From an uncultured Ignavibacteriota bacterium (GTDB lineage: Bacteria > Bacteroidota > Ignavibacteria > UBA10030 > BY39): DNA of 64,000 nt. Shown one piece after another: positions 21,419-47,363 of this stretch. Position 1 is the stretch's first letter. Every line of letters begins with the position of its first letter. The notes below the pieces were generated by a model, which was given only the letters and a program-made list of their open reading frames with translations, was not told where the DNA came from and searched no databases. The stretch is from assembly GCA_947085405.1 (NCBI GenBank), contig CAMTWO010000013.1, positions 20,193-84,192 of the forward strand. Reading direction: 5' to 3'. Position numbers and translations under genes: made by a program.

Positions 21419-21489
21419 TGCCGGGTAGTCTAATGGCAGGACAGCGGCCTTTGGAGCCGTATGTGGAGGTTCGACTCCTCCCCCGGCAG
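21419..21489 (+). tRNA. tRNA-Gln (anticodon UUG), no encoded CCA
   Basis: Hand-folded cloverleaf. Acceptor stem TGCCGGG/CCCGGCA gives a U1:A72 pair with discriminator G73; D-stem GTCT/GGAC; anticodon stem GCGGC/GCCGT with loop CTTTGGA (anticodon TTG); T-arm GGAGG-TTCGACT-CCTCC. U1:A72, G73 and U35 are E. coli tRNA-Gln identity elements. Confidence 0.7.
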
Positions 21490-21536
21490 CAGAAAGTATG
21501 AATACAATAAAAAATTTAAACATATGGAGTTAAAAT

Positions 21537-29239: not shown

Positions 29240-32203
29240 ATGATTAAAAAATTACTAGCTTTATTTCTCACTATTCTATTAGTAACAGTTGTTACATCTG
29301 CACAAGATGGTAAGTTACGTGGTATCATCACCGATAAAACTAACGGTGAGCCCCTGATTGGTGCAACAGTGTCTCTCGAAGGCACTATGATGGGTGCAGC
29401 AAGCGATATCAATGGTGAGTTTTTCATTTTAAGTGTTCCGCCCGGAACATACAGCATAAAGACATCCTATGTCGGTTATGCTCAAGTAACAATCTCAAAC
29501 GTTCGTGTCCTCTCGAATTTTACTACTACACAAAATTTTCAACTTCTAAGCGAAGCCGTCCAAGTTGATGCAGTAGATATTTTTGCCGAACGTCCGCTTA
29601 TTCAACGAAACACAACTAACACCGTTCGGGTTACTACACAAGAAGATATCAGGAATCTCCCAATTCGTGGACTAGAAAATATTCTGAGTCTGCAAGCTGG
29701 TGTGGTAGATCAAGATAATCAACTTTATGTACGCGGTGGACGTTCAGGCGAAATTGCATATTTTGTTGATGGCGCTTCTACAACAAATCCAATTACTAAT
29801 TCACAAACATTTTCGGTAATTCAGGAAGCTGTTGAAGAACTACAATTGCAAGCCGGCGGTTATACTGCAGAATTTGGCGGTGCAAATTCCGGTATCGCAC
29901 GAACTACTCTACGCACAGGTCAAAGCAGCTATAAAGGCTCGGTCGATTTCCTAACCGATAACCTTGCTAAACCCGGTGCCGACTATCTTGGTTCATCATC
30001 GTTTGGTTACACAAATATGGTGGCTACCATAAGCGGTCCTGTGATGAAAAATTTAAAATTTTTCGTAGCTGGTCAGCATCAATTTATTAGAAATCGCAGT
30101 CTAAGGTTCATAGAACCTTTCCGTTTCGAAAATATTGTTACGGATGTAAACGATGAAGCTCCCGGTAGATCGCTCCCTGGTCCGATCGAATTCAAGAAGA
30201 ATTATATCCCCGGTAACTGGCTTCAAAATTACTCAACTCAAGGTAACCTCAATTATGAGTTACAATCAATGAAGTTCAAACTATCCGGAAGTTACACATA
30301 CGATAAATCGCCATTCGATAACAGATGGCCCACAGCTTTAACACGGTATTTCAACAAACGGTCGCGTATCGACCACAACACTACCGGATTTGCAAATTTT
30401 AGATTTACACACGTTGTTAATCCAAAAACATACTACGAAGTAGCTCTCTCTTACCAGAGTCGTTACTTCCGTCGTGTTGATCCTGATTTTGGCGACGACT
30501 GGAAATCATATACCGATAGTACTAAAAATACCGAATTAGGTTACACCGGATTCCGACGTCCTTATGCGGGCCCTTTACCTTACAGCATTATCAATGCATT
30601 TTTAATGACACACGAGAATGCACCGAATAATGCTTATTCCAAAAACCAACAAACATCTTATGGTTTTGCTGGCGACTTTACTTCTCAACTAACATCAAAT
30701 TGGGAAATAAAATTTGGTACCAGATTAGATTCATGGATCGCCCGCAATTATGCTGTTGGTAACATCCAAGGTGCAATGGAGTTTCTCTATGGTACGGACG
30801 GAAGAACACCCCGAACCTTCGCTGATGATTATGAAAGGCGTGTAAGATTATCCAAAGCCGGAACTATCAATCATTACGGCTACGATGTTGATGGTAATGA
30901 AATTAATTCAGGAATTGATGCTCCTCGAAAGCCACTTTTTGCTTCGGCTTATTTGCAAAATAAATTAGAATATCAGGACATTATACTTAATTTAGGTCTT
31001 CGTTATGAATACTTCGATACGAAGAATAAGACTTTCAAAGATCCATTACAGCCCGATTTCAACACTGATTTAGATGTTATCGACGAAACTAAATTAGAGG
31101 AAGCAAAACCGTTTAATCTCGTATTGCCTCGTGTTAGTTTTTCGTTTCCCGTTACCGATGTTACAGTATTCTATGCTATGTACGGAAAATACGCACAGAT
31201 GCCATCTTTGAATCAACTTTATATCGGAAACACAACTCTTAGCCGTACAGTCAGTCCGATAACTCGTGGAAATGCATTCTTAACTCCAGTTGGATATCTG
31301 ATGATACCCGAAAGAACGACTCAGTACGAAATGGGTATTCGGCAGTCGTTAGCTGATAATTTTGCATTTACTGTAAGTGGTTTCTACAAAGACATAAAAG
31401 ACCAATTACAAGTTCGTTCCTATGTTAATGAAGCGGGTAGCAAATTGTTTACTGCATACTTGAACGATGACTTTGGTACGATTAAGGGGTTAGAACTTAC
31501 ACTCGAACTTCGCCGAACTAACCGATTAGCTACAAAGTTTAATTACACATTATCCGATGCCCGCGGAACAGGGTCAAATTCACAATCTTCATTTGGAGCT
31601 GTTGAACAAAACATCGGACGTCCGACAAGCTTCATAAACCCACTCGATTTTAACCAAACTCATTCAGGCACATTGTTGCTTGATTATAGATTTGCTAAAG
31701 GCGATGGTGGACCGATCTTAGAACAAATGGGCGTCAATATGATACTCTCGTTCAATAGCGGACATGCATATACTAAAATAAAAGAGTTGAAAGAACTCGG
31801 ACAAGCAAACGTTTGGGACGTCGGTGTGGAACCATTGAACGATCCACGGGCAAGTTTCCCGACCGAACCACTCAACAGTTCGACAACTCCCTGGGTATAT
31901 AATATCGACCTCAACTTCAGTAAAAAGTTCAACCTTGGTGTAATCGATGCTGAATTTTATGTAAATATTATTAATTTACTCAATACAAAGGACATATTGA
32001 ACGTCTATCCAACCACCGGAACTGCCCAGGACGATGGCTGGTTAGGTAATTCGTTGGCAACACCATTCCACCAAATTCCTAACTATACCGATTTCTATAA
32101 AGCCATTAATTCACAGAACCGTTGGGCTTATATGGTGGCTACTGGAAACGATTTGTTCGGTACACCGCGTCAGGTTCGTTTTGGTCTACGGCTTGAAATA
32201 TAA
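29240..32203 (+). CDS. TonB-dependent outer-membrane receptor with N-terminal carboxypeptidase-regulatory-like domain (SusC/RagA-like architecture); paralog 1
   Basis: 987 aa. Signal peptide; KLRGIITDKTNGEPLIGATVSLEG...DINGEFFILSVPPGTYSIK (CarboxypepD_reg-like); plug region ...QRNTTNTVRVTTQEDIRNLPIRGLENILSLQAGVV...YVRGG; long beta-barrel; strong AAGGAGG RBS. Confidence 0.85.
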   Translation: MIKKLLALFLTILLVTVVTSAQDGKLRGIITDKTNGEPLIGATVSLEGTMMGAASDINGEFFILSVPPGTYSIKTSYVGYAQVTISNVRVLSNFTTTQNFQLLSEAVQVDAVDIFAERPLIQRNTTNTVRVTTQEDIRNLPIRGLENILSLQAGVVDQDNQLYVRGGRSGEIAYFVDGASTTNPITNSQTFSVIQEAVEELQLQAGGYTAEFGGANSGIARTTLRTGQSSYKGSVDFLTDNLAKPGADYLGSSSFGYTNMVATISGPVMKNLKFFVAGQHQFIRNRSLRFIEPFRFENIVTDVNDEAPGRSLPGPIEFKKNYIPGNWLQNYSTQGNLNYELQSMKFKLSGSYTYDKSPFDNRWPTALTRYFNKRSRIDHNTTGFANFRFTHVVNPKTYYEVALSYQSRYFRRVDPDFGDDWKSYTDSTKNTELGYTGFRRPYAGPLPYSIINAFLMTHENAPNNAYSKNQQTSYGFAGDFTSQLTSNWEIKFGTRLDSWIARNYAVGNIQGAMEFLYGTDGRTPRTFADDYERRVRLSKAGTINHYGYDVDGNEINSGIDAPRKPLFASAYLQNKLEYQDIILNLGLRYEYFDTKNKTFKDPLQPDFNTDLDVIDETKLEEAKPFNLVLPRVSFSFPVTDVTVFYAMYGKYAQMPSLNQLYIGNTTLSRTVSPITRGNAFLTPVGYLMIPERTTQYEMGIRQSLADNFAFTVSGFYKDIKDQLQVRSYVNEAGSKLFTAYLNDDFGTIKGLELTLELRRTNRLATKFNYTLSDARGTGSNSQSSFGAVEQNIGRPTSFINPLDFNQTHSGTLLLDYRFAKGDGGPILEQMGVNMILSFNSGHAYTKIKELKELGQANVWDVGVEPLNDPRASFPTEPLNSSTTPWVYNIDLNFSKKFNLGVIDAEFYVNIINLLNTKDILNVYPTTGTAQDDGWLGNSLATPFHQIPNYTDFYKAINSQNRWAYMVATGNDLFGTPRQVRFGLRLEI

Positions 32204-32241
32204 TATAAACATAACTCAAAATTAAAAAGGAGTTGCTAAAA

Positions 32242-35200
32242 ATGAACATAAAAAAATTAAATTTACTAACAATACTTGTTGTTGTCTTCGGCTTTTTATG
32301 CTCTACTGTTTTTGGCTCTGGGATTCCAGATAAAAACAATCGCCAAAAAGATAAGTCGTTGATGAAACCAACAGGTACACCCCTTTACCAAATTCTGAAT
32401 ATTAATAACATCACCACTTGGATGCGGTCCGATGGTCAACAAAACCATTCACCCACGAGCGATAATGGTTCATATTTTCCACGTGGAACAAAATGGGCAA
32501 TTTATCAGGACGGTTTTGTATGGGGTGGAAAAGCTTATTTAGATGCCGGTTTAACTACACCGGCACCAACACAACTTATCCGTGTTGGAGGTCAAACATA
32601 CAACATCGGTACACGTGCAGGCCGCATAATGGGCACAGGTGCTACAGCAGTAGCTCAATCTCCAGCCGATGCGGATGTTCGCATTTATCGTATTCGCCGA
32701 GATTATGGTGAAATGGGAATTCAAGATCTGCAACAGGATGCTGCCGAAAGCTTCGAAGTTCCAATTGCAAGTGTAACAAAATCGCAAACTGATCAAATAT
32801 CTGATCAATATGAAAAAGATTGGGACGAGTGGCCCGTTGCTTATGGGGCACCATTTATTGAAAGGAATGGAACTCCGGGTTACCAGAAGCCCAAACCCTT
32901 TAATTATGATAAAACTAAGGGTGCTATTTTTAATACCGATTCTCTAATTGCTCATAATTATGATGAACCGGGACTTGCCGGAGTTGATCCTAAATCACCG
33001 GCAGATCAGGTTATTTGGACTGTAATCAACGACCTCGATCGAAGTGCATCTACAGGTTTATTTGGTTCAGAGCCATTAGGTCTTGAAGCACAAATTACAT
33101 TGTGGGGTTATAAACGCACCGATGCTATGGGAAATTTATACTTTAAAAAAATTAGATTCATCAATAAAGGTGGTGTTATTACAGTCCTACCTGATACCAA
33201 AGGTTCATTCCATATCGACAGTATGTATTTTGCACAATGGTCAGACCCGGATTTAGGTTCGTACGGTGATGACCTTTGCGGTGTCGATCAACCCCTCAGC
33301 TTAGGTTTTGTTTATAATGGAAATGCTGTCGATGCCGAGTATAAAAAATTCAATCTTCCACCACCGGCTGTAGGATACGACTTTTTGCAAGGTCCATTAG
33401 TTCCTGGCGCTCCAACTGACTCAGGTGTATTCAATCTCAAAAGGGTGTATGGGAAGAAGAATCTACCAATGACATCTTTTGCATATTTCTCTGCCGGTAG
33501 TGGTATTAGCGATCCACCATTTACATACGTAGGCGGTTTAAGATGGTGGAGAATGTTGCAAGGATTTGTACCCGAAGATGCAGCTACATGGAGATTATAT
33601 CCTCATCCAACTGGTGTTACTCCTACTAAATTTCCTCTTAATGGCGATCCTGTCAAGAAAACCGGCTTCATAGACGGAGCTGGGACACCCTCGTCATTTG
33701 CCCCCGGTGATCGAAGAATAGTTCTAAATACCGGACCTTTTTCACTTGCCCCCGGTGATACACAAGAAGTCGTCGTGGGTACTGTAGCCGGTTTAGGCAG
33801 CGATCGTTTCTCAAGTATTAATGTTATGAAATTTTATGACAGGTTTGTACAAAATACATACGATGCTCTATTTCAGGTTCCAAAAGCTCCATCCTCACCT
33901 GCTTTAAAAATAGCAGAACTCGATGGCGAAGTTATTCTGGAATGGGGTAGTGATTCAACGGCTGTGCTAAAAACAGAGACTCTAATTAACCAACCTGGAG
34001 ATTATCGATTTGAAGGTTATAACGTTTATCAGTTGCCAAGTGCTTCTTCCACTTTAGCCGATGCAAAGCGTATTGCAACTTATGATTTAATAAATGATAT
34101 TCCCGTTATACTTGACGAACAATTTGATAATAGATCGGGTGAAATTTTAATGCTGCCGGTTCAATATGGAACGAATAGCGGAATTATACGTCACTTCAAT
34201 TTCGTTCGTGATCATGTTTTAGATATCAATAAACTTAATAATGGGCAAGAATATTATGTAGCCGTTACTGCATATAGTAAATCAAACATACCTGGTTATT
34301 TACCAGCATCGTTAGAATCAAAACCAACTATATTTACAGTCCGTCCACAAAGTTCGACTGCTGGAAAACGATACACTGCAAAAGTGTACGACAAAGTAGC
34401 AGTAAAACTTGTAGCAGGTTCGTCCGATATTGAACTACCAGTTAAGGTTATTGACCCGTCCAAATTATTGGATGCCACATATTCCGTCTCGTTTGAAGTG
34501 GCTGGAGGGGTTACGTCTTGGCTTCTAAAAAACAAAGAGACTGGGGCACTTTTATACAAGAGTAAAAATCTCGGTTCGTTAATGTCTGGAGTGTTGAATG
34601 ATGATTTCGAATACCCTATTATTAATGGATTCCAAGTTGTAGTCGCACAGGAATCTCCCATTATTATTGAAGATTCAACGCGATGGATTCCCCAACGACC
34701 ATCTCAGTTAGACCATGGTAATCGTTATCCGGAAGGACCACCGGTTGCGCTTAGAAGTGTTACAACTGCTGAAGACTTATCCGCTCGATTCCTGGGGCAG
34801 TTTGCTTCATCATACGATATGGCGAAGTTGAAACGTGTAGAATTACGATTTGGGACTGGGAATGGCTCCAAAGCATATCGAGTTCGTCGAACTGGTGGAG
34901 GTACAGAATATTTAATTCAAACTAACGTTATTGCTGGCGTGGCACCTAATGGTGAAGGTTTTGTTAATGTTCCGTTTAGTGCTTGGGATATGGATAATCC
35001 GGGTGGTCCACGGCAAATTACCTTGAGTTGGAGAGACCAGAGCAATGATGCACGTTGGAATCCACCAACCACAGGTGATAATGTCGAAATTATTTTTATT
35101 CATGACCGGACATACGATCCACTTGGTACTCAGTATACATATCCCACTAATCCGGATCCTGCACGTCAAGGACCGGCGATATTAAATGAGGTTACTGTGG

Positions 35201-35703
35201 GTGCGAGGGCTGATATCATGTATGGTGTTTCTTTACGTTCAGTTGGTACTCAAATCGATGGTTCTGATGCTTCGGTCAGTGTAGCAACATTATATATTAG
35301 GCCCAAGTTTGTTTTAAATGATGCGTTGGTTTACGAGTTCACTACATCAGCTCCAACGTTTTCTCAGGAACTTGCCAAAGCCGATGCAGAAAAAGTTGGC
35401 GTATATCCAAATCCTTATTATGCTTTCAATCCTGCCGAAACCAACCGGTTTGTTAGGTTTGTAACATTCAACAAATTACCTGCGAAAGCAACAATAAGAA
35501 TATTCAACTTAGCCGGTCAGTTAGTTCGTACTCTCACAAAAGAGGATCCTTCACAGTTTATGCGATGGGATCTTAATAATGAGTATAATTTCCCGGTTGC
35601 AAGCGGTATTTACGTAGCACACGTGGATATGCCTGATGTAGGAGTTACCAAGATAGTTAAGGTAGCTATAATTCAAGAACAAGAAGTTCCAGATGTATTC
35701 TAA
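32242..35703 (+). CDS. large secreted protein (~1150 aa) with T9SS C-terminal sorting domain, no recognisable catalytic motif; paralog 1 (start at ATG 32242, not the track's TTG 32233, which overlaps the RBS)
   Basis: Signal peptide MNIKKLNLLTILVVVFGFLCSTVFG. Internal Fn3-like segment (...PKAPSSPALKIAELDGEVILEWG...). C-terminus VYPNPYYAFNPAET...ATIRIFNLAGQLVRTL...SGIYVAHVDM...KIVKVAII matches the type-A T9SS CTD pattern (PNP..., I.I.N..GQ.V, GIY). Confidence 0.8.
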   Translation: MNIKKLNLLTILVVVFGFLCSTVFGSGIPDKNNRQKDKSLMKPTGTPLYQILNINNITTWMRSDGQQNHSPTSDNGSYFPRGTKWAIYQDGFVWGGKAYLDAGLTTPAPTQLIRVGGQTYNIGTRAGRIMGTGATAVAQSPADADVRIYRIRRDYGEMGIQDLQQDAAESFEVPIASVTKSQTDQISDQYEKDWDEWPVAYGAPFIERNGTPGYQKPKPFNYDKTKGAIFNTDSLIAHNYDEPGLAGVDPKSPADQVIWTVINDLDRSASTGLFGSEPLGLEAQITLWGYKRTDAMGNLYFKKIRFINKGGVITVLPDTKGSFHIDSMYFAQWSDPDLGSYGDDLCGVDQPLSLGFVYNGNAVDAEYKKFNLPPPAVGYDFLQGPLVPGAPTDSGVFNLKRVYGKKNLPMTSFAYFSAGSGISDPPFTYVGGLRWWRMLQGFVPEDAATWRLYPHPTGVTPTKFPLNGDPVKKTGFIDGAGTPSSFAPGDRRIVLNTGPFSLAPGDTQEVVVGTVAGLGSDRFSSINVMKFYDRFVQNTYDALFQVPKAPSSPALKIAELDGEVILEWGSDSTAVLKTETLINQPGDYRFEGYNVYQLPSASSTLADAKRIATYDLINDIPVILDEQFDNRSGEILMLPVQYGTNSGIIRHFNFVRDHVLDINKLNNGQEYYVAVTAYSKSNIPGYLPASLESKPTIFTVRPQSSTAGKRYTAKVYDKVAVKLVAGSSDIELPVKVIDPSKLLDATYSVSFEVAGGVTSWLLKNKETGALLYKSKNLGSLMSGVLNDDFEYPIINGFQVVVAQESPIIIEDSTRWIPQRPSQLDHGNRYPEGPPVALRSVTTAEDLSARFLGQFASSYDMAKLKRVELRFGTGNGSKAYRVRRTGGGTEYLIQTNVIAGVAPNGEGFVNVPFSAWDMDNPGGPRQITLSWRDQSNDARWNPPTTGDNVEIIFIHDRTYDPLGTQYTYPTNPDPARQGPAILNEVTVGARADIMYGVSLRSVGTQIDGSDASVSVATLYIRPKFVLNDALVYEFTTSAPTFSQELAKADAEKVGVYPNPYYAFNPAETNRFVRFVTFNKLPAKATIRIFNLAGQLVRTLTKEDPSQFMRWDLNNEYNFPVASGIYVAHVDMPDVGVTKIVKVAIIQEQEVPDVF

Positions 35704-35734
35704 GGCTAAAATAATATTAAAAGGAGAATGAAAT

Positions 35735-36781
35735 ATGAAAAATAAATATTTATATACCGCCTTTTTAATAGGCCTTGTAATATTAGTTGTATTTAATTTT
35801 ACTGAGGCTCAAAATAAAAGGATAGGCACTGCGGCAGCCACTGAATTACTAATTCCCGTGGGTGCCCGCGATTTCGCAATGGGTGGTGCCACAATTTCAA
35901 ATACTTCCGGAGTCGAAGCAATACACTGGAATCCTGCCGGTCTCAGCTTAATAAAGTATGGTGCCGAAGGGATGTTCTCTTCCATGAATTATTTGGGAGA
36001 TATCGGTGTTAGCTACGGCGGCGTAGGTGTTTCGTTTGGCGATTTCGGTGTTGTTGGGTTAACTATAAAATCGCTTTCTTTCGGCGATATTCCACTCACC
36101 ACAAACGAAGACCCTGAAGGACTTTTAGGAAGAGTATATTCACCAACCTATTTTACTTTAGGTCTCACTTACTCTAAATCACTGACCGATGCTGTTGCGG
36201 CGGGTATTACAACTAAAATGATCTCTGAGCGAATCGACCGTGTTTCGGCTTCTGCTATCGCTTTCGATTTTGGTGTTATCTACCGTAATTTAGCTCATAT
36301 TTCCGGTTTGAATATGGGTGTAACGGTTAAAAACATCGGTACGCAAATGGCTTTTGATGGAACCGGATTGTACCGCAGCGCAACTTCAAGCGAAGGTTAT
36401 AGACCTGAACAAAGATACAAAATTCAAGCGGCAAGTTTCGAACTCCCATCTTCAATAGAAATCGGGCTTGCTTACGTTAGTACTTTGCAGGAAAATATAC
36501 ATTTTAGCTTGAACAGTACTTTTATAAATAACAATTTATACTTAGACGAATATAAACTTGGCGGTGAAATCGGATATTATCTAAGTGGTCTTAAATTGTT
36601 CGGAAGAGCCGGTATGGGTATGGTTCCACAAGCTGAAAAAGATGCAAATATTTTCGGCGGTACATTCGGCGCTGGTATTGCTTATTCTGCCCCAGGTGTT
36701 GATATTATCGTCGATTATGCATACAGACAAACCGATTTCTTCGACGGGAATAATGTATTATCCATCAAACTTGGTTTTTAA
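35735..36781 (+). CDS. PorV/FadL-like 14-strand outer-membrane beta-barrel (T9SS shuttle-like); paralog 1
   Basis: 348 aa. Signal peptide, then IGTAAATELLIPVGARDFAMGGA...EAIHWNPAGL (FadL/PorV-type N-terminal motif). Alternating beta-strand pattern; C-terminal ...SIKLGF ends in Phe (OMP beta-signal). Confidence 0.6.
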   Translation: MKNKYLYTAFLIGLVILVVFNFTEAQNKRIGTAAATELLIPVGARDFAMGGATISNTSGVEAIHWNPAGLSLIKYGAEGMFSSMNYLGDIGVSYGGVGVSFGDFGVVGLTIKSLSFGDIPLTTNEDPEGLLGRVYSPTYFTLGLTYSKSLTDAVAAGITTKMISERIDRVSASAIAFDFGVIYRNLAHISGLNMGVTVKNIGTQMAFDGTGLYRSATSSEGYRPEQRYKIQAASFELPSSIEIGLAYVSTLQENIHFSLNSTFINNNLYLDEYKLGGEIGYYLSGLKLFGRAGMGMVPQAEKDANIFGGTFGAGIAYSAPGVDIIVDYAYRQTDFFDGNNVLSIKLGF

Positions 36782-36806
36782 ATAATTCCCAAAAGTAACA
36801 CGTTTA

Positions 36807-36840
36807 AAAGGCTGACTTTTTTAAGTCAGCCTTTTTTTTA
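36807..36840 (+). terminator. rho-independent terminator of accessory operon 1
   Basis: AAAAGGCTGACTT-tttt-AAGTCAGCCTTTTTTTT. Confidence 0.65.
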
Positions 36841-36905
36841 TAATTGACTGAAGTTACTCGAAATTGACTTTTTGTCGCGTTGAGGATACTTTAATAGGTG
36901 TTACC

Positions 36906-37042
36906 TATTTCTCTTTTGAAAATGACAATCCTTGATATCTTAATTGTCTCCGTAGGAGACATATGTTTGTAGTAATGCGTTGTAGATGCGCCCACGACCC
37001 CAGAGGGGTCGAATGTCTTGTCATTAGGAGCGAAGAGAAATA
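36906..37042 (+). ncRNA. candidate structured RNA or MITE-like element: nested inverted repeats enclosing two GC-rich hairpins
   Basis: Outer 10-bp IR TATTTCTCTT (36906-15) / AAGAGAAATA (37033-42). Inner 8-bp IR AATGACAA (36921-28) / TTGTCATT (37018-25). Hairpins TGTCTCC-gta-GGAGACA (36945-61) and CGACCCC-aga-GGGGTCG (36995-37011). No ORF. Two further hairpins at 37076-37100 and 37106-37122. Confidence 0.3.
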
Positions 37043-37167
37043 TCTAAAAAACGCTTGAATTTCGTGCATTAGATTCTTCATCCACCTTTGGCGGATGAAG
37101 AATGATCCCGCAAAATGCGGGACGTAACTTCAGATATTAACGAAATATAATCTTAACTCTTTTCATT

Positions 37168-39666: not shown

Positions 39667-42600
39667 ATGATTATTAAAAAGTTACTATTTCTTTTTATTT
39701 TGCTCTTTATAGTTGTATCCATAAGTTTTGCTCAAACAACAGGTAAGCTAAATGGTAAAATTATCGATAAAGAGTCGCGAGAAGCTCTCATCGGTGTTAA
39801 CGTTATGCTCGAAGGCACAACGCTTGGAACCGTTACCGATGTAGATGGAAATTACATAATGTTAAATGTTCCTGTCGGCACTTATAATTTAATTGTGCGA
39901 TACGTAGGTTACCGGGAAGTTACAGTGAAAAACTTAAAATCGATGGTGAGTTTTACAACAACTCAAAACATAGAGTTGAGTTCCGAAGCTGTAGAACTCA
40001 AGGAAGTTGTGATCTCAGCGGAGCGGCCCCTAATACCCAAAGACCAGACTGGGACTGTTCGTGTTGTAACCTCAGAGCAAATTCAATTAATGCCGGTACG
40101 TGGTATCAGGGAAATGGCAGCTACTACTGCTGGTGTTGTGCAGGGTGAAAGAGGCGGCGAACTTAATATCCGGGGTGGTCGGTCAGAAGAAACAGGTTAC
40201 ATTGTCGATGGTGTTTGGACGAATAATCCTTTAACAGGTGGCTCAACTGCTTTTGTCAGTCAACGAGCAATTCAAGAAATGATAGTGATGACCGGTGGAT
40301 ATAGCGCCGAATACGGAAACGTGATGAGTGGTATTGTTAACGTCTCCACAAAATCCGGTAAACCAAATTATTTCGGTAGTTTTGAATATGTAACAGATGG
40401 ATTTCTGGGTGATGGAGTACAAGGGTGGCGAAATAATGGTTACCAATTGTATAATTTAGCATTTGGCGGACCTGTTATTCCTTCTAATAAAAACATTTTA
40501 CAATTCTTTGGCTCTTTTGAATATACATTTAACAGAGATCCAAATCCAAGTTACAACTCTGAAAGACTCAGCGACCTTTCTAATAGTATTTGGCCCAAAT
40601 TTAAGGAAGTAACAGTAAATTATATTCAAGAAGGTCTTCAAAGACTACCCAAACTGCCGAGTGAAGAAATTGATAAACGAGCTAAAGAATTATTATTAGA
40701 CCAACCGAATTGGAATTTAGCACGTCCTGGTCAAATGCCAGATGGTGCTTCGCTACGTCTTGCTTGGAACGAAAAATTAACTGCTAATTTAGGAGACTTC
40801 CGTGTTAATTTGGGTGGTATATCCTCGAGAACGTGGGCTCGTTCAAGGGTGTTCAGCTATACTTTGATGAATGCGTTCCACAATCCAATGACAAATTCAG
40901 TCAACGACCAATATACTTTACGAGTTACCTGGGCACCTCAACCAAAGACATTTGCTGAAATTCAGGGAAGTTATTTTTACACTTATTCTGATTACATGGA
41001 TCCTGTCCATGAAGATAGAGTCTTCGATTATGGAGATCCTGCAAAAAACCCCCTCTTCTTCAATTATTTTCCTCCGGGGGTAGATCCCAGCCAGTTGAGA
41101 GCATCAAGAATTCCGATGGATACATATTTAGGGATGTTTGCTTATCCAGGTCGGGTGTATAATGGATATGGATTTAATAAAACAACATTTTGGCAATTTA
41201 ACGCAAACGTAACTCATCAATTGGGTGAACACGAAATTAAATTAGGTGGTGAGTATAAAATCCATCAATTGCGCGCTTATGCAATAGGGCCTCTTAGTTT
41301 AGCTTTATTGCGACCGGGTATAATCGATACGTTACGGAATGGGTTGTATGATCAATTAACAGTAGCACAAAAATCTTACGTTCTTAAAGAATATGCATCA
41401 CGAGGTATCAATACTTATGGTTATGATTATTTCGGTCGGGAAGTTGATTATGACGGATACGTTAAGAGTGAACGGAGTGAAGGTCCCAAAGAACCTATCT
41501 TCGGCGCTTTGTATTTACAAGATAAAATGGAATACCAAGATTTTATTGTAAATGCCGGACTCAGATTTGATTATTGGGATTCTAACACGGATGTATTAAA
41601 AGATTTATACGATGTTGCTAATAGTAAAAATACTACACAATATGGATCACCAGAAAACTTTAAGCGATTGTTTCCAAATAAATCAGTTCCAGCAGATGGT
41701 TGGGGAAATCCAAACAAAATTGAGGACGACAGTTTTGAAGAATCAAAGCCATTCCTGATATTCAGCCCAAGGTTAGGCTTCTCTTTCCCCGTCTCTGAAA
41801 GAATGGTATTTTTTGCTCAATATGGGACATTCGCACAGATGCCCCCACTTTCGAACCTTTATATGAGTTCCGACAGGCTGCGCGAATGGTATTTAGCCCC
41901 CGGCTATTTTTCAATAAATAATCCTCGATTACGACCTCAAAAAACTACTCAATACGAATTAGGTATTCGTCAGCAATTAGGTGAAGTAGCAAGCTTAAAT
42001 ATTACAGCTTACTACAAAGAAATTACTGGACTTATTCAATTAGGTGTCATTGAATCACGTTGGAACAATACGACCTTCTCAACTCTTCAAAATGGTGATT
42101 ACTCGACTGTACGCGGATTTGATCTATCATTTGATTCACGGCGTTGGAATAATTTAGCTGCTTCTGTAAACTATACATTGTCGTATGCAACAGGTACAGG
42201 TTCCGATCCCGGCACGTTAGGCACAATTCTTTGGTTGAATGCGAGAGCTCCAAAATTTGAATCCCCACTCGATTTCGATCAGCGTCACACAATTGCTGCA
42301 ACATTAGATTACCGTTTCGGAAAAATGGATAATGTATTTTTAAATCAACTCGGTATGAATTTATTATTCAGAAGTAACAGCGGTAGGCCCTATACACTAA
42401 ATGATCCAAGTATTCCACCAACCGACTCACGAATAAAACCTCAATCAACAATTAACGCTAATTACAGCGATTGGAATTTTAGGTTCGATTACCGAATTGA
42501 TAAAACTTTTGAATTACCTATTTCCAATATGAGGTTGAATACTTATATATTAATTTTGAATTTGCTGGACAGAAAAAATATTGCTAGCGTATGGGCTGGT

Positions 42601-42789
42601 TCAGGTCAACCTGATCAAACTGGATATACTCAAACCCCGGATTTCAAAGCAACAATCCAGAGAATGATCGAACAAGATAGAGCTGATGAAGTACCTGTTT
42701 TCACCGGAATATATAATATGTACGAGATGCAACCGAGCTTCGTAGGTGCACCTCGGCAAGTCAGATTTGGACTTATTTTAGAATTTTAA
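39667..42789 (+). CDS. TonB-dependent outer-membrane receptor with N-terminal carboxypeptidase-regulatory-like domain; paralog 2
   Basis: 1040 aa. KLNGKIIDKESREALIGVNVMLEG...VDGNYIMLNVPVGTYNL; plug ...TGTVRVVTSEQIQLMPVRGIREMAATTAGVV...NIRGG; C-terminal ...APRQVRFGLILEF. Co-linear with 29240..32203. Confidence 0.85.
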   Translation: MIIKKLLFLFILLFIVVSISFAQTTGKLNGKIIDKESREALIGVNVMLEGTTLGTVTDVDGNYIMLNVPVGTYNLIVRYVGYREVTVKNLKSMVSFTTTQNIELSSEAVELKEVVISAERPLIPKDQTGTVRVVTSEQIQLMPVRGIREMAATTAGVVQGERGGELNIRGGRSEETGYIVDGVWTNNPLTGGSTAFVSQRAIQEMIVMTGGYSAEYGNVMSGIVNVSTKSGKPNYFGSFEYVTDGFLGDGVQGWRNNGYQLYNLAFGGPVIPSNKNILQFFGSFEYTFNRDPNPSYNSERLSDLSNSIWPKFKEVTVNYIQEGLQRLPKLPSEEIDKRAKELLLDQPNWNLARPGQMPDGASLRLAWNEKLTANLGDFRVNLGGISSRTWARSRVFSYTLMNAFHNPMTNSVNDQYTLRVTWAPQPKTFAEIQGSYFYTYSDYMDPVHEDRVFDYGDPAKNPLFFNYFPPGVDPSQLRASRIPMDTYLGMFAYPGRVYNGYGFNKTTFWQFNANVTHQLGEHEIKLGGEYKIHQLRAYAIGPLSLALLRPGIIDTLRNGLYDQLTVAQKSYVLKEYASRGINTYGYDYFGREVDYDGYVKSERSEGPKEPIFGALYLQDKMEYQDFIVNAGLRFDYWDSNTDVLKDLYDVANSKNTTQYGSPENFKRLFPNKSVPADGWGNPNKIEDDSFEESKPFLIFSPRLGFSFPVSERMVFFAQYGTFAQMPPLSNLYMSSDRLREWYLAPGYFSINNPRLRPQKTTQYELGIRQQLGEVASLNITAYYKEITGLIQLGVIESRWNNTTFSTLQNGDYSTVRGFDLSFDSRRWNNLAASVNYTLSYATGTGSDPGTLGTILWLNARAPKFESPLDFDQRHTIAATLDYRFGKMDNVFLNQLGMNLLFRSNSGRPYTLNDPSIPPTDSRIKPQSTINANYSDWNFRFDYRIDKTFELPISNMRLNTYILILNLLDRKNIASVWAGSGQPDQTGYTQTPDFKATIQRMIEQDRADEVPVFTGIYNMYEMQPSFVGAPRQVRFGLILEF

Positions 42790-42815
42790 TCAAAATTTTT
42801 AAGGAGTTTATTACT

Positions 42816-45800
42816 ATGAAAATAAAATTTTTATTGGTGTTTCTATTTGCTTTGTCCTTCTCATTGGGATATTCATTGGATATTGAATCTTCTAGAAAGG
42901 CTGCTCTAGGACCACACAAGCCAATGATTATCGAACGAAAAGCTATGGATATTAATACCATTAATGCTTGGTTCCGAAATGAGGGTGAGTTTTATAGCGA
43001 CCACAAAACTACTGGTCCTGGTTTTGAGTGGCCCAAAGGTGGAAAAGTTCACGCTATTTTTTCTTCGTCAATGTGGATTGGAGCGAGAGTAGTTAACCCT
43101 GAAGATACAACTAAAAAGGATATCCGGGTTGCTACAGTTGGTCATTTTGGTTCAGAGCACCGTCCGGGTATAATTTTACCAGACGGTACTGCTGACGATT
43201 TTACCCGCCCGAAATATCGATATTATCGGGTGCGTCCTAACGAAGATTCTCCTCGCACGAGTGCCGATTATGCGGAATGGCCTGCTGAAGACGGCGCACC
43301 TTTTCACGATGTTGACAAAGATGGTATATATAATCCAAATGTAGATAAACCAGCATTAGTCTGGGGAGACCAAATAGTTTACCCGGATATGTTGATGTTT
43401 GCGGTTTACAATGATGCTGAAGAAGCTTATCATAATTGGATTTGGGGGAGAAGTAAACCATTAGGTGCTGAAATCCGGCAGACATCGTGGGCCTATAATC
43501 GTGCAGGACCGTTCGGTCAAATGCAATTTATGAAGTTTGAAGTTATTAACAAAAGTAACGCTCCATGGGATTCTGCTTATTTGGTAGTATGGTCCGATCC
43601 AGATATGGGAGATGCTTTTGATGATGCTTCAGGCGTCGATACAACAATCGTCAATCCTAGAACAAAAGAAAAACGGAATTTAGGTTATGTTTATAATGGT
43701 ACGAATACTGATGCGGGTTATGGAACAGCTCCACCGGCTGTTGGTTATAAATATTTTCAAGGACCCCGCTTAAAAACCGATCTTATTACTGATACTGCAA
43801 AGTGGTCGGGGCAATTGCTACCTGGTTATAAAAATTTAAATGTTTCCGGGTTCAATTTTTATTGTAACCCTGGACAAGGTGGCTGCACGAATCCTGATTG
43901 GTATGACCCGTTCTTATTTTTGCAATCTTATAATGTTATGCAAGGTCTAACTCGTACCGGCAGAAGATGGGTATGTGAAGGCGATACAACTTATTTTATG
44001 TTCGCCGGAGACCCTGTTACAAACACAGGTTGTACCTACTCAGACTTACTGCAACCCTCTGATGTTAGATTTACTTTACCGGCTGGTCCTTTCACAATTA
44101 TGCCTGGTGATACACAACAAGTAGTAATAGGTATAATTGTTGGAAGAGGCTCTAATAACTTAAATAGTATTAGCGTATTACGCACCTATGCCGATATGTC
44201 GCAAATATTATTTAACAATAATTTTAAGTTACCTCCTGCTCCACCAAGCCCTAAAGTTGAGCACAGCTGGATTGATGGAAAAATAATTTTATCCTGGGAC
44301 AAAGACAAAGCATCAAGAACTTTCAGGAACCCGGATGAAAAATTCTTTAACACTGTCTGGAAATTTAATGCATTTACTATTTATCAAACTAACGATCCAC
44401 TTCTAAGACCCGGTGCACGTACTGAAAAACTTGGAACATACTATAAAAAAGGTGATTCGTCGAAAGTGAAAGATTTTGTTATATTCCCAGGAGTTGACGA
44501 CCCCGTCCTGGCCACTATTTGGGAAGGTGATTTTGAAGGTATAATAGATCAACTCGTTTTAACAGAGGATCGAATCAATTCTAAACCATTTATACCGGGA
44601 AGACCTTATCACTTCATCATTACTGCCTCTGCAGTTGATTCTAATTATAACCCTTTAGATTCAGCAAGAATTAAAGACCTAAGCGGATTGATTTTATTAG
44701 AATCACCGAAAAATGTAATTACAATAATACCAAAAAATCCTGTTCTTGGGACTGAGTTTCCGAGTGGTAACGATTATGGTTCTGTTATTCCTCATAATAA
44801 GTGGAAATCTCTTAAAAATTATGACGATGCAGTTCAAGTGAAAGTTGTTGATCCGTGGCGAACTGAAAATAAGAAGTATCGAATTACATTACAAGGTAAT
44901 GACCCATCAAATACATTAAATGTAACTTCTTGGTCACTACTTGAATTGAATTCAAATAATGAAGTAGTTGATACTGTAATTGCAAATTATAATAATTTTA
45001 ACGGAGGGACTGATTATCCTGTGGTGTCAAACGTTATGCCTGTTGTACAAAATTTACCTATTGGAGTCAGGCGGCGTTTTCAGGTACCATCTGGTTTCTC
45101 ATACCAAGGGAAACGTTGGTTTACAGGTTTGAGAGGACCCCAGATGGATGATACATTAGCTTCAATACAAATTACACCAACTCGACGAGCACCTGTAACT
45201 GGTGTTGTTTCATATCCACAAATAGGTAGATACACAAACGCAATTACAGGTTTACGCCCGGATAGCTTACGGCGTGTTGAAATTCGTTTTTCAAAAACAA
45301 ATACACAAAAAGCATATAGATATGTCACTGGTTTTGAGATTAGGCCGATAAAAGGCCCGATTCATTCAGAATTTAGACCATATTTAGTAGATTCTACTGG
45401 ATTCGGCTATTTATATCAGGATTACCAACAATATAGGATGGGTATTCAGGACAGTGGTTATGTCGTACCGTTTACCGTTTGGGAAGTTGATTCTTTATAC
45501 GGAGATGGGAAACCACGACAATTGGATGTTGCGATAGTTGAAAGAAACGATTCGATGCGTGTCGTCCGAAAAGATATTTATGGAAGAGATAGCATTGTTC
45601 ATGTTTACAGAGGTAAAATTGACGCAAAATGGGATCCTTCTCCCTATACCGGTGAAAATCATTCTGAAGGTGATGAAGTAATTTTGGTATTCCGCTCTTC
45701 TTACTCAGATACTGCGAAACCAGAGTACACTAAAAAAGATAGAGATTACAAAGATTTCGAGTTTAAAAATTTGCCTTTAATGTACATTATAGTAATGCGC

Positions 45801-46298
45801 AAAGTAAATGAACAATCAAATTTTGCTGATGGAGATGTTATCGCCATCCGGCCTAACTATGCTTTAAATACAGACAAAATTTTTGAGTTCGAAGTTAAAG
45901 CTCCACAAGTAGGCTTTTCAGAAATCGCGAAACAGCGTGACGAGATGCGCAAAATTAAAATTGTTCCAAATCCGTACTATGCATCTCATCAACTGCAGGC
46001 TGATCCATTTGATAGTTATGTAACCTTTACCAATCTTCCTACCAGAGCAAAGATTAGAATTTTTAATTTAGCTGGTGATATGGTAGCGGTTGTAAATCAC
46101 GACTACCAAGGACAAATGGATAACAGCTCTACACGTTGGGGTCTCAAAAATCACGCCAATATTCCTGTAGCAAGTGGAATGTATATTGCACATATCGAAG
46201 GTTATGGACTTGATGAGCATGGAGGGGAAGTGAAAATAGGTGAAAAGGTGTTGAAGTTTGCAATATTCATACAAGAAGAACGACTTGACACATTCTAA
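42816..46298 (+). CDS. large secreted protein (~1160 aa) with T9SS C-terminal sorting domain; paralog 2
   Basis: Signal peptide MKIKFLLVFLFALSFSLG. Shares blocks with 32242..35703 (PPAVGYKYFQGP / PPAVGYDFLQGP; FTIMPGDTQQVVIGIIVGRGSN / FSLAPGDTQEVVVGTVAGLGSD; LPPAPPSPKVEHSWIDGKIILSWD). C-terminus IVPNPYYA...AKIRIFNLAGDMVAVV...SGMYIAHIEG...KVLKFAIF is a T9SS CTD. Confidence 0.8.
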   Translation: MKIKFLLVFLFALSFSLGYSLDIESSRKAALGPHKPMIIERKAMDINTINAWFRNEGEFYSDHKTTGPGFEWPKGGKVHAIFSSSMWIGARVVNPEDTTKKDIRVATVGHFGSEHRPGIILPDGTADDFTRPKYRYYRVRPNEDSPRTSADYAEWPAEDGAPFHDVDKDGIYNPNVDKPALVWGDQIVYPDMLMFAVYNDAEEAYHNWIWGRSKPLGAEIRQTSWAYNRAGPFGQMQFMKFEVINKSNAPWDSAYLVVWSDPDMGDAFDDASGVDTTIVNPRTKEKRNLGYVYNGTNTDAGYGTAPPAVGYKYFQGPRLKTDLITDTAKWSGQLLPGYKNLNVSGFNFYCNPGQGGCTNPDWYDPFLFLQSYNVMQGLTRTGRRWVCEGDTTYFMFAGDPVTNTGCTYSDLLQPSDVRFTLPAGPFTIMPGDTQQVVIGIIVGRGSNNLNSISVLRTYADMSQILFNNNFKLPPAPPSPKVEHSWIDGKIILSWDKDKASRTFRNPDEKFFNTVWKFNAFTIYQTNDPLLRPGARTEKLGTYYKKGDSSKVKDFVIFPGVDDPVLATIWEGDFEGIIDQLVLTEDRINSKPFIPGRPYHFIITASAVDSNYNPLDSARIKDLSGLILLESPKNVITIIPKNPVLGTEFPSGNDYGSVIPHNKWKSLKNYDDAVQVKVVDPWRTENKKYRITLQGNDPSNTLNVTSWSLLELNSNNEVVDTVIANYNNFNGGTDYPVVSNVMPVVQNLPIGVRRRFQVPSGFSYQGKRWFTGLRGPQMDDTLASIQITPTRRAPVTGVVSYPQIGRYTNAITGLRPDSLRRVEIRFSKTNTQKAYRYVTGFEIRPIKGPIHSEFRPYLVDSTGFGYLYQDYQQYRMGIQDSGYVVPFTVWEVDSLYGDGKPRQLDVAIVERNDSMRVVRKDIYGRDSIVHVYRGKIDAKWDPSPYTGENHSEGDEVILVFRSSYSDTAKPEYTKKDRDYKDFEFKNLPLMYIIVMRKVNEQSNFADGDVIAIRPNYALNTDKIFEFEVKAPQVGFSEIAKQRDEMRKIKIVPNPYYASHQLQADPFDSYVTFTNLPTRAKIRIFNLAGDMVAVVNHDYQGQMDNSSTRWGLKNHANIPVASGMYIAHIEGYGLDEHGGEVKIGEKVLKFAIFIQEERLDTF

Positions 46299-46322
46299 AA
46301 TGAAAGTATAAGGAAAAAAGTC

Positions 46323-47363
46323 ATGAAAAGATTGAAATTATTAAACATAATATTAGTTGTAGCTATTATTATATCATTCACATTCGATAGTTTTGCAGGT
46401 TCACCAAATCGGCGTGGAACTGCAGGAGCTACTGAATTACTAATTCCTGTAGGGTCGACCGGTGTAGGGATGAGTGGATCGATTTTAGCAACTGCCCACG
46501 GGTTAGATGCGATACACTGGAATCCTGCTGGTTTATCAAGGAGCAATCTCAGCGCCCAGGTGATGTTCTCGAATTTATCATACATTGCAGATATTGGCGT
46601 TAATTATTTAGCGGTTTCTGCAAATATGGAAGATTTAGGACATCTCGGTGTCAGTTTTAAAACTCTATCTTTTGGAAAAATCGAAGAAACTACAATTGAT
46701 AGACCGGAAGGAACTGGTATTACTTACTCACCAACATTTCTAACAGTCGGTTTAACTTATTCGCGTAGAATGACAGATAGAATTCATTTTGGGACAAATA
46801 TCAAAATGGTTTACGAATCCATTACCCGCGTATCAGCAACAGCGTTTGCATTCGATCTTGGATTACAATACAAAGCTGGTGAAACAGGATTCAACTTCGG
46901 CGTGGCACTCAAAAACTTGGGATCAGAAATTAGTTTTGATGGTTCAGATTTTGACAGATTTGTTGATGACCCAAATCAGATCACCGGATATCCGACTCAA
47001 CCAATGCGACTTAGGACTGCCGGATTCGGTATGCCTACAACTTTAGAATTAGGTCTTGCCTACAAATATCCACTGATGGCAGAACACTTAGTAGAGATGA
47101 GCACTACTTTCATAAACAATAACTACTCAAATGATGAATATCGCTTTGGTGTTGAATATGCTTATAATAATTTATTTTTTATTAGAGGTGGGTATGCCTA
47201 TGCGCAAGGTGTTCCCTCGGAATTTGAAAATATTTTCGGACCTACTTTTGGTGCCGGTGTTCGTTATACTATTAGTGGAGTTGAAATGTCTGTAGATTAT
47301 GCATATCGTTCCACTACTTTCTTTTCCGGTAATCAATGGTTCTCTGTGATGATAGGTTTTTAA
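46323..47363 (+). CDS. PorV/FadL-like outer-membrane beta-barrel; paralog 2
   Basis: 346 aa. RGTAGATELLIPVGSTGVGMSGS...DAIHWNPAGL; C-terminal ...DYAYRSTTFFSGNQWFSVMIGF. Co-linear with 35735..36781. Confidence 0.6.
   Translation: MKRLKLLNIILVVAIIISFTFDSFAGSPNRRGTAGATELLIPVGSTGVGMSGSILATAHGLDAIHWNPAGLSRSNLSAQVMFSNLSYIADIGVNYLAVSANMEDLGHLGVSFKTLSFGKIEETTIDRPEGTGITYSPTFLTVGLTYSRRMTDRIHFGTNIKMVYESITRVSATAFAFDLGLQYKAGETGFNFGVALKNLGSEISFDGSDFDRFVDDPNQITGYPTQPMRLRTAGFGMPTTLELGLAYKYPLMAEHLVEMSTTFINNNYSNDEYRFGVEYAYNNLFFIRGGYAYAQGVPSEFENIFGPTFGAGVRYTISGVEMSVDYAYRSTTFFSGNQWFSVMIGF

Follow-up and report, generated by a model that had tools for sequence, protein, structure and literature searches.

A structured intergenic spacer of an uncultured Ignavibacteriota bacterium as the probable interior of a MITE-like element with SRM-type hairpins

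We analyzed a 64,000-nt stretch of DNA (hereafter, the window) from an uncultured Ignavibacteriota bacterium, comprising positions 20,193-84,192 of the forward strand of contig CAMTWO010000013.1 in assembly GCA_947085405.1, and in particular the highly structured spacer between a gene for a PorV-like porin and a gene for a PIG-L-like protein. An earlier note had proposed that this spacer might be a riboswitch-like leader or small RNA (sRNA), a protein-binding DNA site, or a miniature inverted-repeat element (MITE). Our results make it likely that the structured sequence forms the inside of a non-autonomous mobile element of 286 bp, which was inserted downstream of the terminator of the upstream gene in the lineage of the window and its sister genome (L002). 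It would accordingly be selfish DNA rather than a conserved RNA switch of the following gene. The element joins known kinds: it is a MITE-like shell that carries hairpins of the Ssn-related motif (SRM) type.

Orthologous empty sites are observed directly. Relatives of the locus were found via homologues of the 761-aa PIG-L-like protein (65-84% identity), which yielded seven more contigs with an identical gene order. Six lineages (L010, L012, L013, L016, L017, and L018/19) retain the order of PorV-like followed by PIG-L-like gene, and have a spacer of 93-101 nt and no element. Their empty spacers consist of the terminator, a short AT-rich stretch, and then the ATG; the terminator itself is kept in all relatives compared. 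If the 286-bp unit is subtracted from the window spacer, 100 nt remain, versus 93-94 nt in the nearest empty relatives, and the 6-7 surplus bases at the excised site are as expected of a target duplication.

The same element is present in L002 (metagenome-assembled genome JAUXOG01), a related genome of the GTDB set, with 92.6% nucleotide identity over 2.86 kb around the spacer. In L011 (GCA_030017895.1, JASEGV01), the same spacer harbors a 121-bp unit at 4846-4966 with ends CTGAAGTTACGC/GCGTAACTTCAG and a perfect 7/7 duplication, TTATTTA, on both sides. This copy aligns to the window copy solely as the reverse complement, i.e., it has the opposite orientation. The tree of the flanking proteins groups the window and L002 with the empty L010 and L012, and L011 with the empty L013 and L016 (four-point sums of 0.240 versus 0.316 and 0.319). 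As each filled lineage is nested among empty ones, the simplest history would involve two independent insertions, in opposite orientations and approximately 2 nt apart, just 3' of the terminator T-run. Such a double hit near the same spot suggests a strong target preference for the region immediately 3' of the T-run.

Copies of the family are dispersed. A metagenome scan with the conserved left end yielded two additional copies, in L014 and L015. The former is situated between an MscS-like gene and a gene for an Fe-S protein, flanked by TAACGGT and AAACGGT (a 6/7 duplication); the latter lies between two unknown open reading frames (ORFs), and its right terminus has decayed. In all, five copies were found, corresponding to four independent insertions. 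Matching ends occur in L002, L011, L014, and L015, the terminal inverted repeats (TIRs) being 12-13 bp long in L011 and L014. In L011, L014, and L015, alignment and nhmmer delineate a short form of the family, 121-143 bp in length. No further copies were found in about 230 kb of related loci or in about 10 kb of sequence adjoining the window. The 286-bp element had no BLAST match in plasmids or phages, scans of viral contigs with the shell left end, its right end, or the core likewise gave none, and a literature search with the repeat strings and with peptides of spurious translations gave nothing relevant.

The family has several characteristics of a MITE: small non-coding units bounded by TIRs, target duplications (in L011 and L014), and orthologous sites that are empty in some lineages and filled in others. 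It resembles bacterial MITEs such as Correia/NEMIS of Neisseria, ERIC, RUP, and MITEAba12 in being small (here 121-286 bp) and non-coding, with TIRs and a short target duplication, in the presence/absence pattern between related genomes, in the intergenic location near gene ends, and in having length variants produced by internal indels. In contrast to them, its interior is a pair of nuclease-type hairpins and not a remnant of a transposase gene. The MITE reading of the earlier note was right about the kind of element and wrong about its boundaries: the 10-bp and 8-bp nested repeats represent an internal inverted duplication of one hairpin module, and the true ends are the two 10-bp TIRs listed in Table 1.

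The interior of the family consists of a head-out pair of hairpin modules with the plan GTCAT-stem-GAGCGAAGCGAA-stem-ATC. More exactly, a module comprises GTCAT, a 5-bp stem, GA-RC-GAA-GY-GA, the complementary stem, and ATC. The copies in L011 and L015 have it intact as GTCAT-GT-TGAGCGAAGCGAA-AC-ATC. In the window copy, the pair is represented by modules A and B (Table 1). Module A is the only match to GTCATNNTGAGCGAAGCGAANNATC in 64 kb at no more than three mismatches (it has two; 0.01 matches are expected); it keeps GTCAT and ATC, and its stem positions are now unpaired. The apex stem of module B covaries between copies, being TCCGTCA/TGACGGA in L014 and TCCGCC/GGCGGA in L002. A window-specific change of TC to GA at 37097-37098, relative to both L002 and the family, perfects the module B palindrome to 14 bp save for one A.C pair. 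Immediately downstream, at 37106-37122, a new perfect 17-nt hairpin replaces 8 nt of L002 (L002 region 5937-5956). Both of these window changes look like quasi-palindrome (template-switch) mutations.

The window/L002 copy also carries a lineage-specific expansion, situated between the conserved blocks ...TTGTC(AT)GTTGAG and CGAAG.GAAA.ATCT and absent from L011, L014, and L015. Positions 23-39 of the family model match twice in the window by nhmmer, and a degenerate half-module precedes the expansion; neither strand of the interior of the expansion matches the family model. The reverse complement of 36904-36928 reads TTGTCATT-TTCAA-AAGAGAAATA, while module A reads TTGTCATT-AGGAGCG-AAGAGAAATA, and both carry the same three derived bases, the family consensus being TTGTCATG...AAGCGAAACA. 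Hence the Y-shaped fold described in the earlier note appears to have arisen inside the element by inverted duplication and the addition of perfect palindromes. This origin is consistent with template-switch mutation at hairpins, without constituting proof of it.

Table 1. Features of the spacer and its immediate surroundings (window coordinates)
Feature	Position	Strand	Remarks
Whole MITE-like insertion, 286 bp	36848-37133	+	TIR shell, SRM-type module pair, lineage-specific internal expansion
Left TIR, CTGAAGTTAC	36848-36857	+	100% complementary to 37124-37133
Right TIR, GTAACTTCAG	37124-37133	-	10 bp
Presumed 7-bp target-site duplication, left copy, TAATTGA	36841-36847		degenerate
Presumed 7-bp target-site duplication, right copy, ATATTAA	37134-37140		degenerate
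Half-module, TTGTCGCGTTGAG	36872-36884	+	5' half of a GTCAT-type hairpin, degenerate (GTCGC); from alignment
Lineage-specific filler/expansion	36885-37017		~135-147 nt, depending on how the duplicated half-module is aligned; most of the Y-shaped structure
Inverted, apex-swapped copy of module A	36904-36928	-	left arms of the nested 10-bp and 8-bp repeats
Module A, degraded SRM-type hairpin, TTGTCATTAGGAGCGAAGAGAAATATC	37018-37044	+	right arms of the nested repeats
Module B, inverted SRM-type, AGATTCTTCA-TCCACCTTTGGCGGA-TGAAGAATGA	37071-37105	-	variable GC-rich apex; terminal ATGAC has become ATGAT
Outer inverted repeat	36906-36915 / 37033-37042		perfect over 10 bp; on extension, 87% over 15 bp
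Inner inverted repeat	36921-36928 / 37018-37025		8 bp
Perfect 7-3-7 hairpin, AATAGGT-GTT-ACCTATT	36893-36909		overlooked in the earlier note; T.G wobble on the + strand in L002
Perfect hairpin, TGTCTCC-GTA-GGAGACA	36945-36961		loop GTTA in L002
Perfect GC-rich hairpin (hairpin 3), CGACCCC-AGA-GGGGTCG	36995-37011
Hairpin with 14-nt arms	37073-37103		one A.C mismatch
Perfect hairpin, TCCCGCA-AAA-TGCGGGA	37106-37122		window-specific; L002 has CTGTTCTG here, corresponding to the TTTTG stretch of the family
PorV-like gene upstream of the spacer	35735-36781
Terminator of the PorV-like gene, classical	36806-36835		followed by T8
Gene downstream of the spacer	starts at 37168		PIG-L-like protein, 761 aa

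All nested inverted repeats and hairpins that had been claimed for the spacer are present in the sequence at 36893-37122; the hairpin with 14-nt arms is real, but its mismatch had gone unmentioned. Four perfect 7-3-7 hairpins fall within 230 nt, and three or more were obtained in 0 of 20,000 shuffles of the same stretch. No comparable hairpin cluster was found elsewhere in the 64-kb window. The fold z-scores of a 241-nt segment against shuffles, computed as RNA, are -5.2 for the plus strand and -7.3 for the minus strand; that of the whole 286 nt as DNA is -7.4. The wobble and mismatch positions are few, and in different hairpins they favor different strands. Since the stems are perfect, the loops uniformly comprise 3 nt, and both strands fold equally well, this region points to a palindromic repeat at the DNA level rather than to an evolved RNA. 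The statement that the spacer has no ORF is true only loosely, as there is a mechanical ORF of 58 aa at 36905-37081 (minus strand). It has no Pfam match, and its C-terminus is altered by a 1-nt indel in the sister genome. The small ORFs inside the element, which lack both conservation and gene calls, are absent from the protein collection (exact look-up). The reported absence of a T-run holds inside the element, the T8 belonging to the upstream terminator.

The hairpin module is a widespread class. A scan of viral contigs with the central block produced nine matches in one provirus-like contig (L031), whose portal protein is closest to those of Helicobacter prophages, at approximately 40% identity. 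The repeats of this contig form two hairpin modules and tandem half-modules without the CTGAAGTTACGC shell. The IMG/VR scan with GTCATNNTGAGCGAAGCGAANNATC resulted in 82 matches in about 60 contigs with GC content from 0.32 to 0.69, against a chance expectation estimated at well under one match. In 81 of these 82 modules the NN/N'N' positions form Watson-Crick pairs, of five types, so that covariation of the module stem is observed directly. An inverted partner with a variable apex is located 2-73 nt downstream in 16/73 modules, which is the layout of the window element. BLAST of one module against plasmids identified matches in Planktothrix, Calothrix, Oscillatoria, Hymenobacter, Phocaeicola, and Granulicella. 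The orientation of modules relative to neighboring ORFs is 42 versus 35 (a count that is noisy in high-GC contigs), and the only genes shared among the neighbors of the 82 modules encode phage portal, capsid, and adaptor proteins, which reflects related phages and not a transposase. The apex contains GCGAAGC, a sequence of the GCGNAGC type, which a review (PMC13037366) describes as forming exceptionally stable DNA mini-hairpins.

Several side observations concern the same modules. Tandem arrays of half-modules (TTGTCATGTTGAGCCTCTAT x4.7 and TGTCATTCTGAGTTCTCCTGTGC x3) precede full modules, and mirrored half-modules follow the inverted partner; such arrays are situated at 1220-1667 and 2182-2563 of L031, the Campylobacterota-like provirus, and at 2955-3215 and 3595-3810 of a Planktothrix plasmid (L097), around a GIY-YIG gene. 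Recurrent rounds of cleavage and repair on the upstream side of the hairpin may have left them. In phage contigs, modules are found about 15 nt downstream of structural genes, e.g., at 5521-5545 of L036, after a Mu-like major head gene, and at 5002-5026 of L038, after an adaptor gene and next to the capsid gene; this is where a strong terminator or an RNA-stabilizing hairpin would be expected. A module doublet at 497-640 of L056 has a weak match to AaHKsRNA41 (Aggregatibacter sRNA 41), at 32 bits versus the gathering threshold of 97. The consensus of this family contains CUGAGC...CGAAGCAUCU; possibly, this "sRNA" is an SRM-type repeat in its own right.

The class is associated with genes of small GIY-YIG nucleases, and this association, too, is observed rather than predicted. 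In the Planktothrix agardhii plasmid, module doublets and half-module arrays lie on either side of a 94-aa GIY-YIG gene at 3260-3544, whose product has 47-49% identity to sequences of the Neisseria gonorrhoeae chromosome. In an IMG/VR contig (L087/L100), modules are located on both sides of a 58%-identical GIY-YIG gene at 1025-1294; a GIY-YIG alignment search of viral contigs retrieved only this contig, already known. Pfam assigns GIY-YIG to the module-flanked genes (90-97 aa). GIY-YIG homologues are also flanked by related hairpins, of the GTCAT type in Spirosoma and Rhizobium and of a GTCGC variant in Novosphingobium. The flanking of an ssn-type (small GIY-YIG, cd10448-like) gene is a finding on the module class and not on the source genome.

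In the published system, binding of the hairpin by SsnA, a 94-aa single-domain GIY-YIG nuclease, is restricted to single-stranded DNA and to one orientation, and the cut is made a few nucleotides upstream of the hairpin (Chenal et al., 2025; PMC11893778). The cognate Ssn enzymes of Neisseria and Wolbachia likewise bind the hairpin as single-stranded DNA and cut just upstream of it (PMC11893778). The target, NTS, is CGTCATTCCCGCGMAVGCGGGAATCYRG (PMC11893778); NTS/Ssn-related motif hairpins reach hundreds of copies and flank ssnA, and the same authors pointed out the insertion sequence-like NTS-ssnA-NTS layout and the parallel to REP/RAYT (Chenal et al., 2025; PMC11893778). As a class, our modules share with these hairpins the oriented order of 5' (T/C)GTCAT, hairpin, and ATC, the intergenic occurrence in inverted pairs and clusters spread across phyla, and the flanking of GIY-YIG genes of 90-97 aa in the Planktothrix plasmid and the IMG/VR contig. 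Unlike them, they have a short AT-rich stem and a constant GAGCGAAGCGAA apex and fail the published pattern, HGTCWYN(0-2)YYVSBRHN(0-5)WNVSBRGN(0-2)RNCYNB (PMC11893778), and in the Bacteroidota copies the hairpin pair is packaged in a separate TIR shell with a 7-bp target duplication. Moreover, the window modules are mutated at positions reported as critical, namely within the stem and in the bases that precede the palindrome (PMC11893778). The pattern recovers NTS and the Rhizobium modules, and, as a side observation, it also misses the Spirosoma and Novosphingobium hairpins at GIY-YIG genes (loci L097, L100, L101, and L103). We therefore file the module class as SRM-like by architecture and gene association, not by the published pattern.

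The modules are also comparable with the REP/REPIN repeats associated with RAYT, an IS200/IS605-like Y1 transposase. In both cases, short palindromes with a conserved 5' tag of fixed orientation are arranged as inverted doublets, which fold into a larger hairpin; both presumably act as single-stranded DNA hairpins, and both flank one small domesticated nuclease gene. They differ in that the module tag is GTCAT and not GTAG, the enzyme is GIY-YIG and not a Y1 HUH transposase, and REPINs have neither TIR shells nor target duplications; besides, no further copies were found in the window. The remaining reading of the earlier note, a protein-binding DNA site, holds insofar as the modules are of a type bound as single-stranded DNA by Ssn nucleases (PMC11893778), but the copies in the window are degraded.

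Taken in layers, the favored explanation is as follows. The outer layer would be a MITE-like shell with TIRs of 10-13 bp (CTGAAGTTAC[GC]) that makes a 7-bp target duplication and is presumably moved in trans by a transposase. The second layer would be the head-out pair of hairpin modules of the SRM/NTS kind, probably recognized as single-stranded DNA by an Ssn-type nuclease. The third layer would be the expansion of about 135-147 nt at module A, comprising a duplicated half-module, a copy of module A in inverted orientation that provides the closing stems of the Y, and new 7-3-7 palindromes, whose perfection may result from template-switch or palindrome-perfecting mutation. The window copy, with both modules degraded, would then be a decaying and probably immobile relic that contributes little or nothing to the regulation of the gene at 37168.

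Several observations weigh against this explanation. The presumed target-site 7-mers of the window copy are identical at only 4/7 positions, and the copy in L015 has no target duplication. The source genome has one copy in about 75 kb examined, the other copies belonging to other genomes and metagenomes, and no transposase or parent insertion sequence with matching ends was found in the plasmid, phage, and viral collections; in both respects, low apparent copy number and lack of a parent in these collections, the family differs from the MITEs named above. No GIY-YIG/ssn homologue was detected in the window or its flanks, and the published SRM pattern has no match in the window, L002, L011, L014, L015, the Planktothrix plasmid, or L100. 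Finally, the window and L002 differ by about 7.5% in the flanks, yet by no substitution and a single loop indel in the 180 nt at 36904-37083. A substitution-free center is unexpected of a pure relic and suggests constraint, recent recombination, or copy-to-copy conversion.

This core is also where assemblies fork. In Logan assemblies of six samples from two run series (L003-L009), contigs break within the element: 37011 is the last position of the upstream contigs (36972 in one of them) and 37000 the first position of the downstream ones, so that 12 nt overlap, CCAGAGGGGTCG. A k=31 graph of the window alone is unbranched. The fork reflects either a longer co-occurring allele flanked by CCAGAGGGGTCG or a second locus sharing 36982-37029, and the breaks hint at a second context for the latter segment. 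In either case, 48 nt or more of the core would be present in another allele or context within the same communities. Given zero substitutions against 7.5% in the flanks and six assemblies forking inside it, the core is possibly not inert. It might be a newly arisen structured module, independently propagating or under selection, derived from an Ssn-type hairpin via half-module duplication and inverted copying, although we consider this rather unlikely; if true, SRM-type hairpin repeats would seed new structured elements, mobile or exapted as RNA. It is very unlikely that the locus is instead an active hotspot of insertion or recombination, with hairpin 3 as the target or attachment site and an additional insertion, flanked by a 12-nt duplication of CCAGAGGGGTCG, in some members of the population. 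The contig ends recurring in both run series and the lack of a branch in the window sequence alone would fit such a hotspot, as would the overlap, which leaves exactly 30-12 = 18 bridging k-mers, as is characteristic of a co-occurring longer allele that contains a direct repeat of 12 nt; but the same graph arises if the 48-mer 36982-37029 sits at a second locus, e.g., in another copy of the expanded element, and the contig ending at 36972 does not conform. The positions of the breaks bear as well on an inverton, in which the repeats 36906-36928 / 37018-37042 would be recombinase sites flipping a promoter segment and switching the outer-membrane operon on and off. Inverted repeats of 10 and 8 bp around a segment of about 90 nt, a -7-like box within it, downstream genes for outer-membrane proteins, and heterogeneous assemblies agree with this scheme. 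Yet the breaks at 37000 and 37011 fall inside hairpin 3, whereas an inversion would split the de Bruijn graph at the boundaries of the repeats, no recombinase domain was found among the scanned part of the window ORFs, copying of module A accounts for the repeat arms, and relatives lack the segment, all of which renders an inverton highly improbable.

An RNA function has to be considered in two forms. The riboswitch-like leader or sRNA of the earlier note is not supported: an intergenic, multi-branched, stable fold upstream of a gene is present, but the element is not conserved with that gene, being absent from the six orthologous spacers. Rfam scans of the window, related loci, and module contigs, at gathering and permissive thresholds, returned only generic hairpin or terminator look-alikes and tRNAs, with no family for the spacer even at E<=10. 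No promoter/terminator pair is present, and perfect palindromes with 3-nt loops typify DNA-level repeats, not evolved RNA helices. Alternatively, the expanded core could have been exapted as a 5' leader or small RNA controlling the operon of the PIG-L-like protein and the TonB-dependent receptor. Besides the strong fold on both strands, this is favored by the length of the conserved stretch 36904-37083, which exceeds that of any other in the 2.86-kb comparison with L002 and has its sole indel in a hairpin loop, and by the octamer TATGTTTG at 36962-36969 (plus strand), a look-alike of the Bacteroidota-type -7 box. On the other hand, the core is found only in two near-identical genomes, too few for covariation, and the orthologous operon lacks it in six lineages. 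It has neither a terminator nor a clear -33 box, and its wobbles point to opposite strands in different hairpins. In addition, the two genomes share other identical runs, of 200-284 nt, though in a 95%-identical region. Exaptation as a regulatory RNA seems unlikely. Hammerhead and other ribozymes, 6S RNA, retron msr/msd, and IS200/IS605 ends were rejected for want of Rfam support or because of wrong neighbors, as was the core as a nested MITE, no TIRs of its own being present at the core ends.

With a mobile element as the preferred reading, a false riboswitch or sRNA candidate is removed, and a striking multi-branch spacer fold can be a by-product of a mobile palindromic repeat. Hairpins of the GAGCGAAGCGAA class are common in contigs of phages and metagenomes as well as in plasmids of Cyanobacteria, Bacteroidota, and Acidobacteriota. 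As the published pattern misses this class, which flanks GIY-YIG genes, pattern-based surveys of SRM/Ssn systems probably undercount them. In these Bacteroidota, the hairpin pairs travel within a shell of TIRs and target duplication. The kinds of element involved were already known, and the understanding of the downstream operon is unchanged.

The window itself has core-genome content: it runs from rpoB/C through a ribosomal-protein cluster to rpoA, followed by two paralogous outer-membrane cassettes. The operon downstream of the spacer includes the PIG-L-like gene and a gene for a TonB-dependent receptor. The cassettes, at 29240-36781 and 39667-47363, lie on either side of the spacer and contain three genes each, encoding a TonB-dependent receptor (987 and 1040 aa), a protein of about 1150 aa without a Pfam domain, and a PorV-like porin. 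Between the two cassettes, the ~1150-aa proteins are 26% identical and the porins 43%. The conserved C-terminal residues of the ~1150-aa proteins, read by eye, resemble a sorting tail of the type IX secretion system, and are a candidate for one. A single tRNA-Gln (anticodon TTG) is located at 21419-21490, between ORFs in the ribosomal-protein-cluster part of the window.

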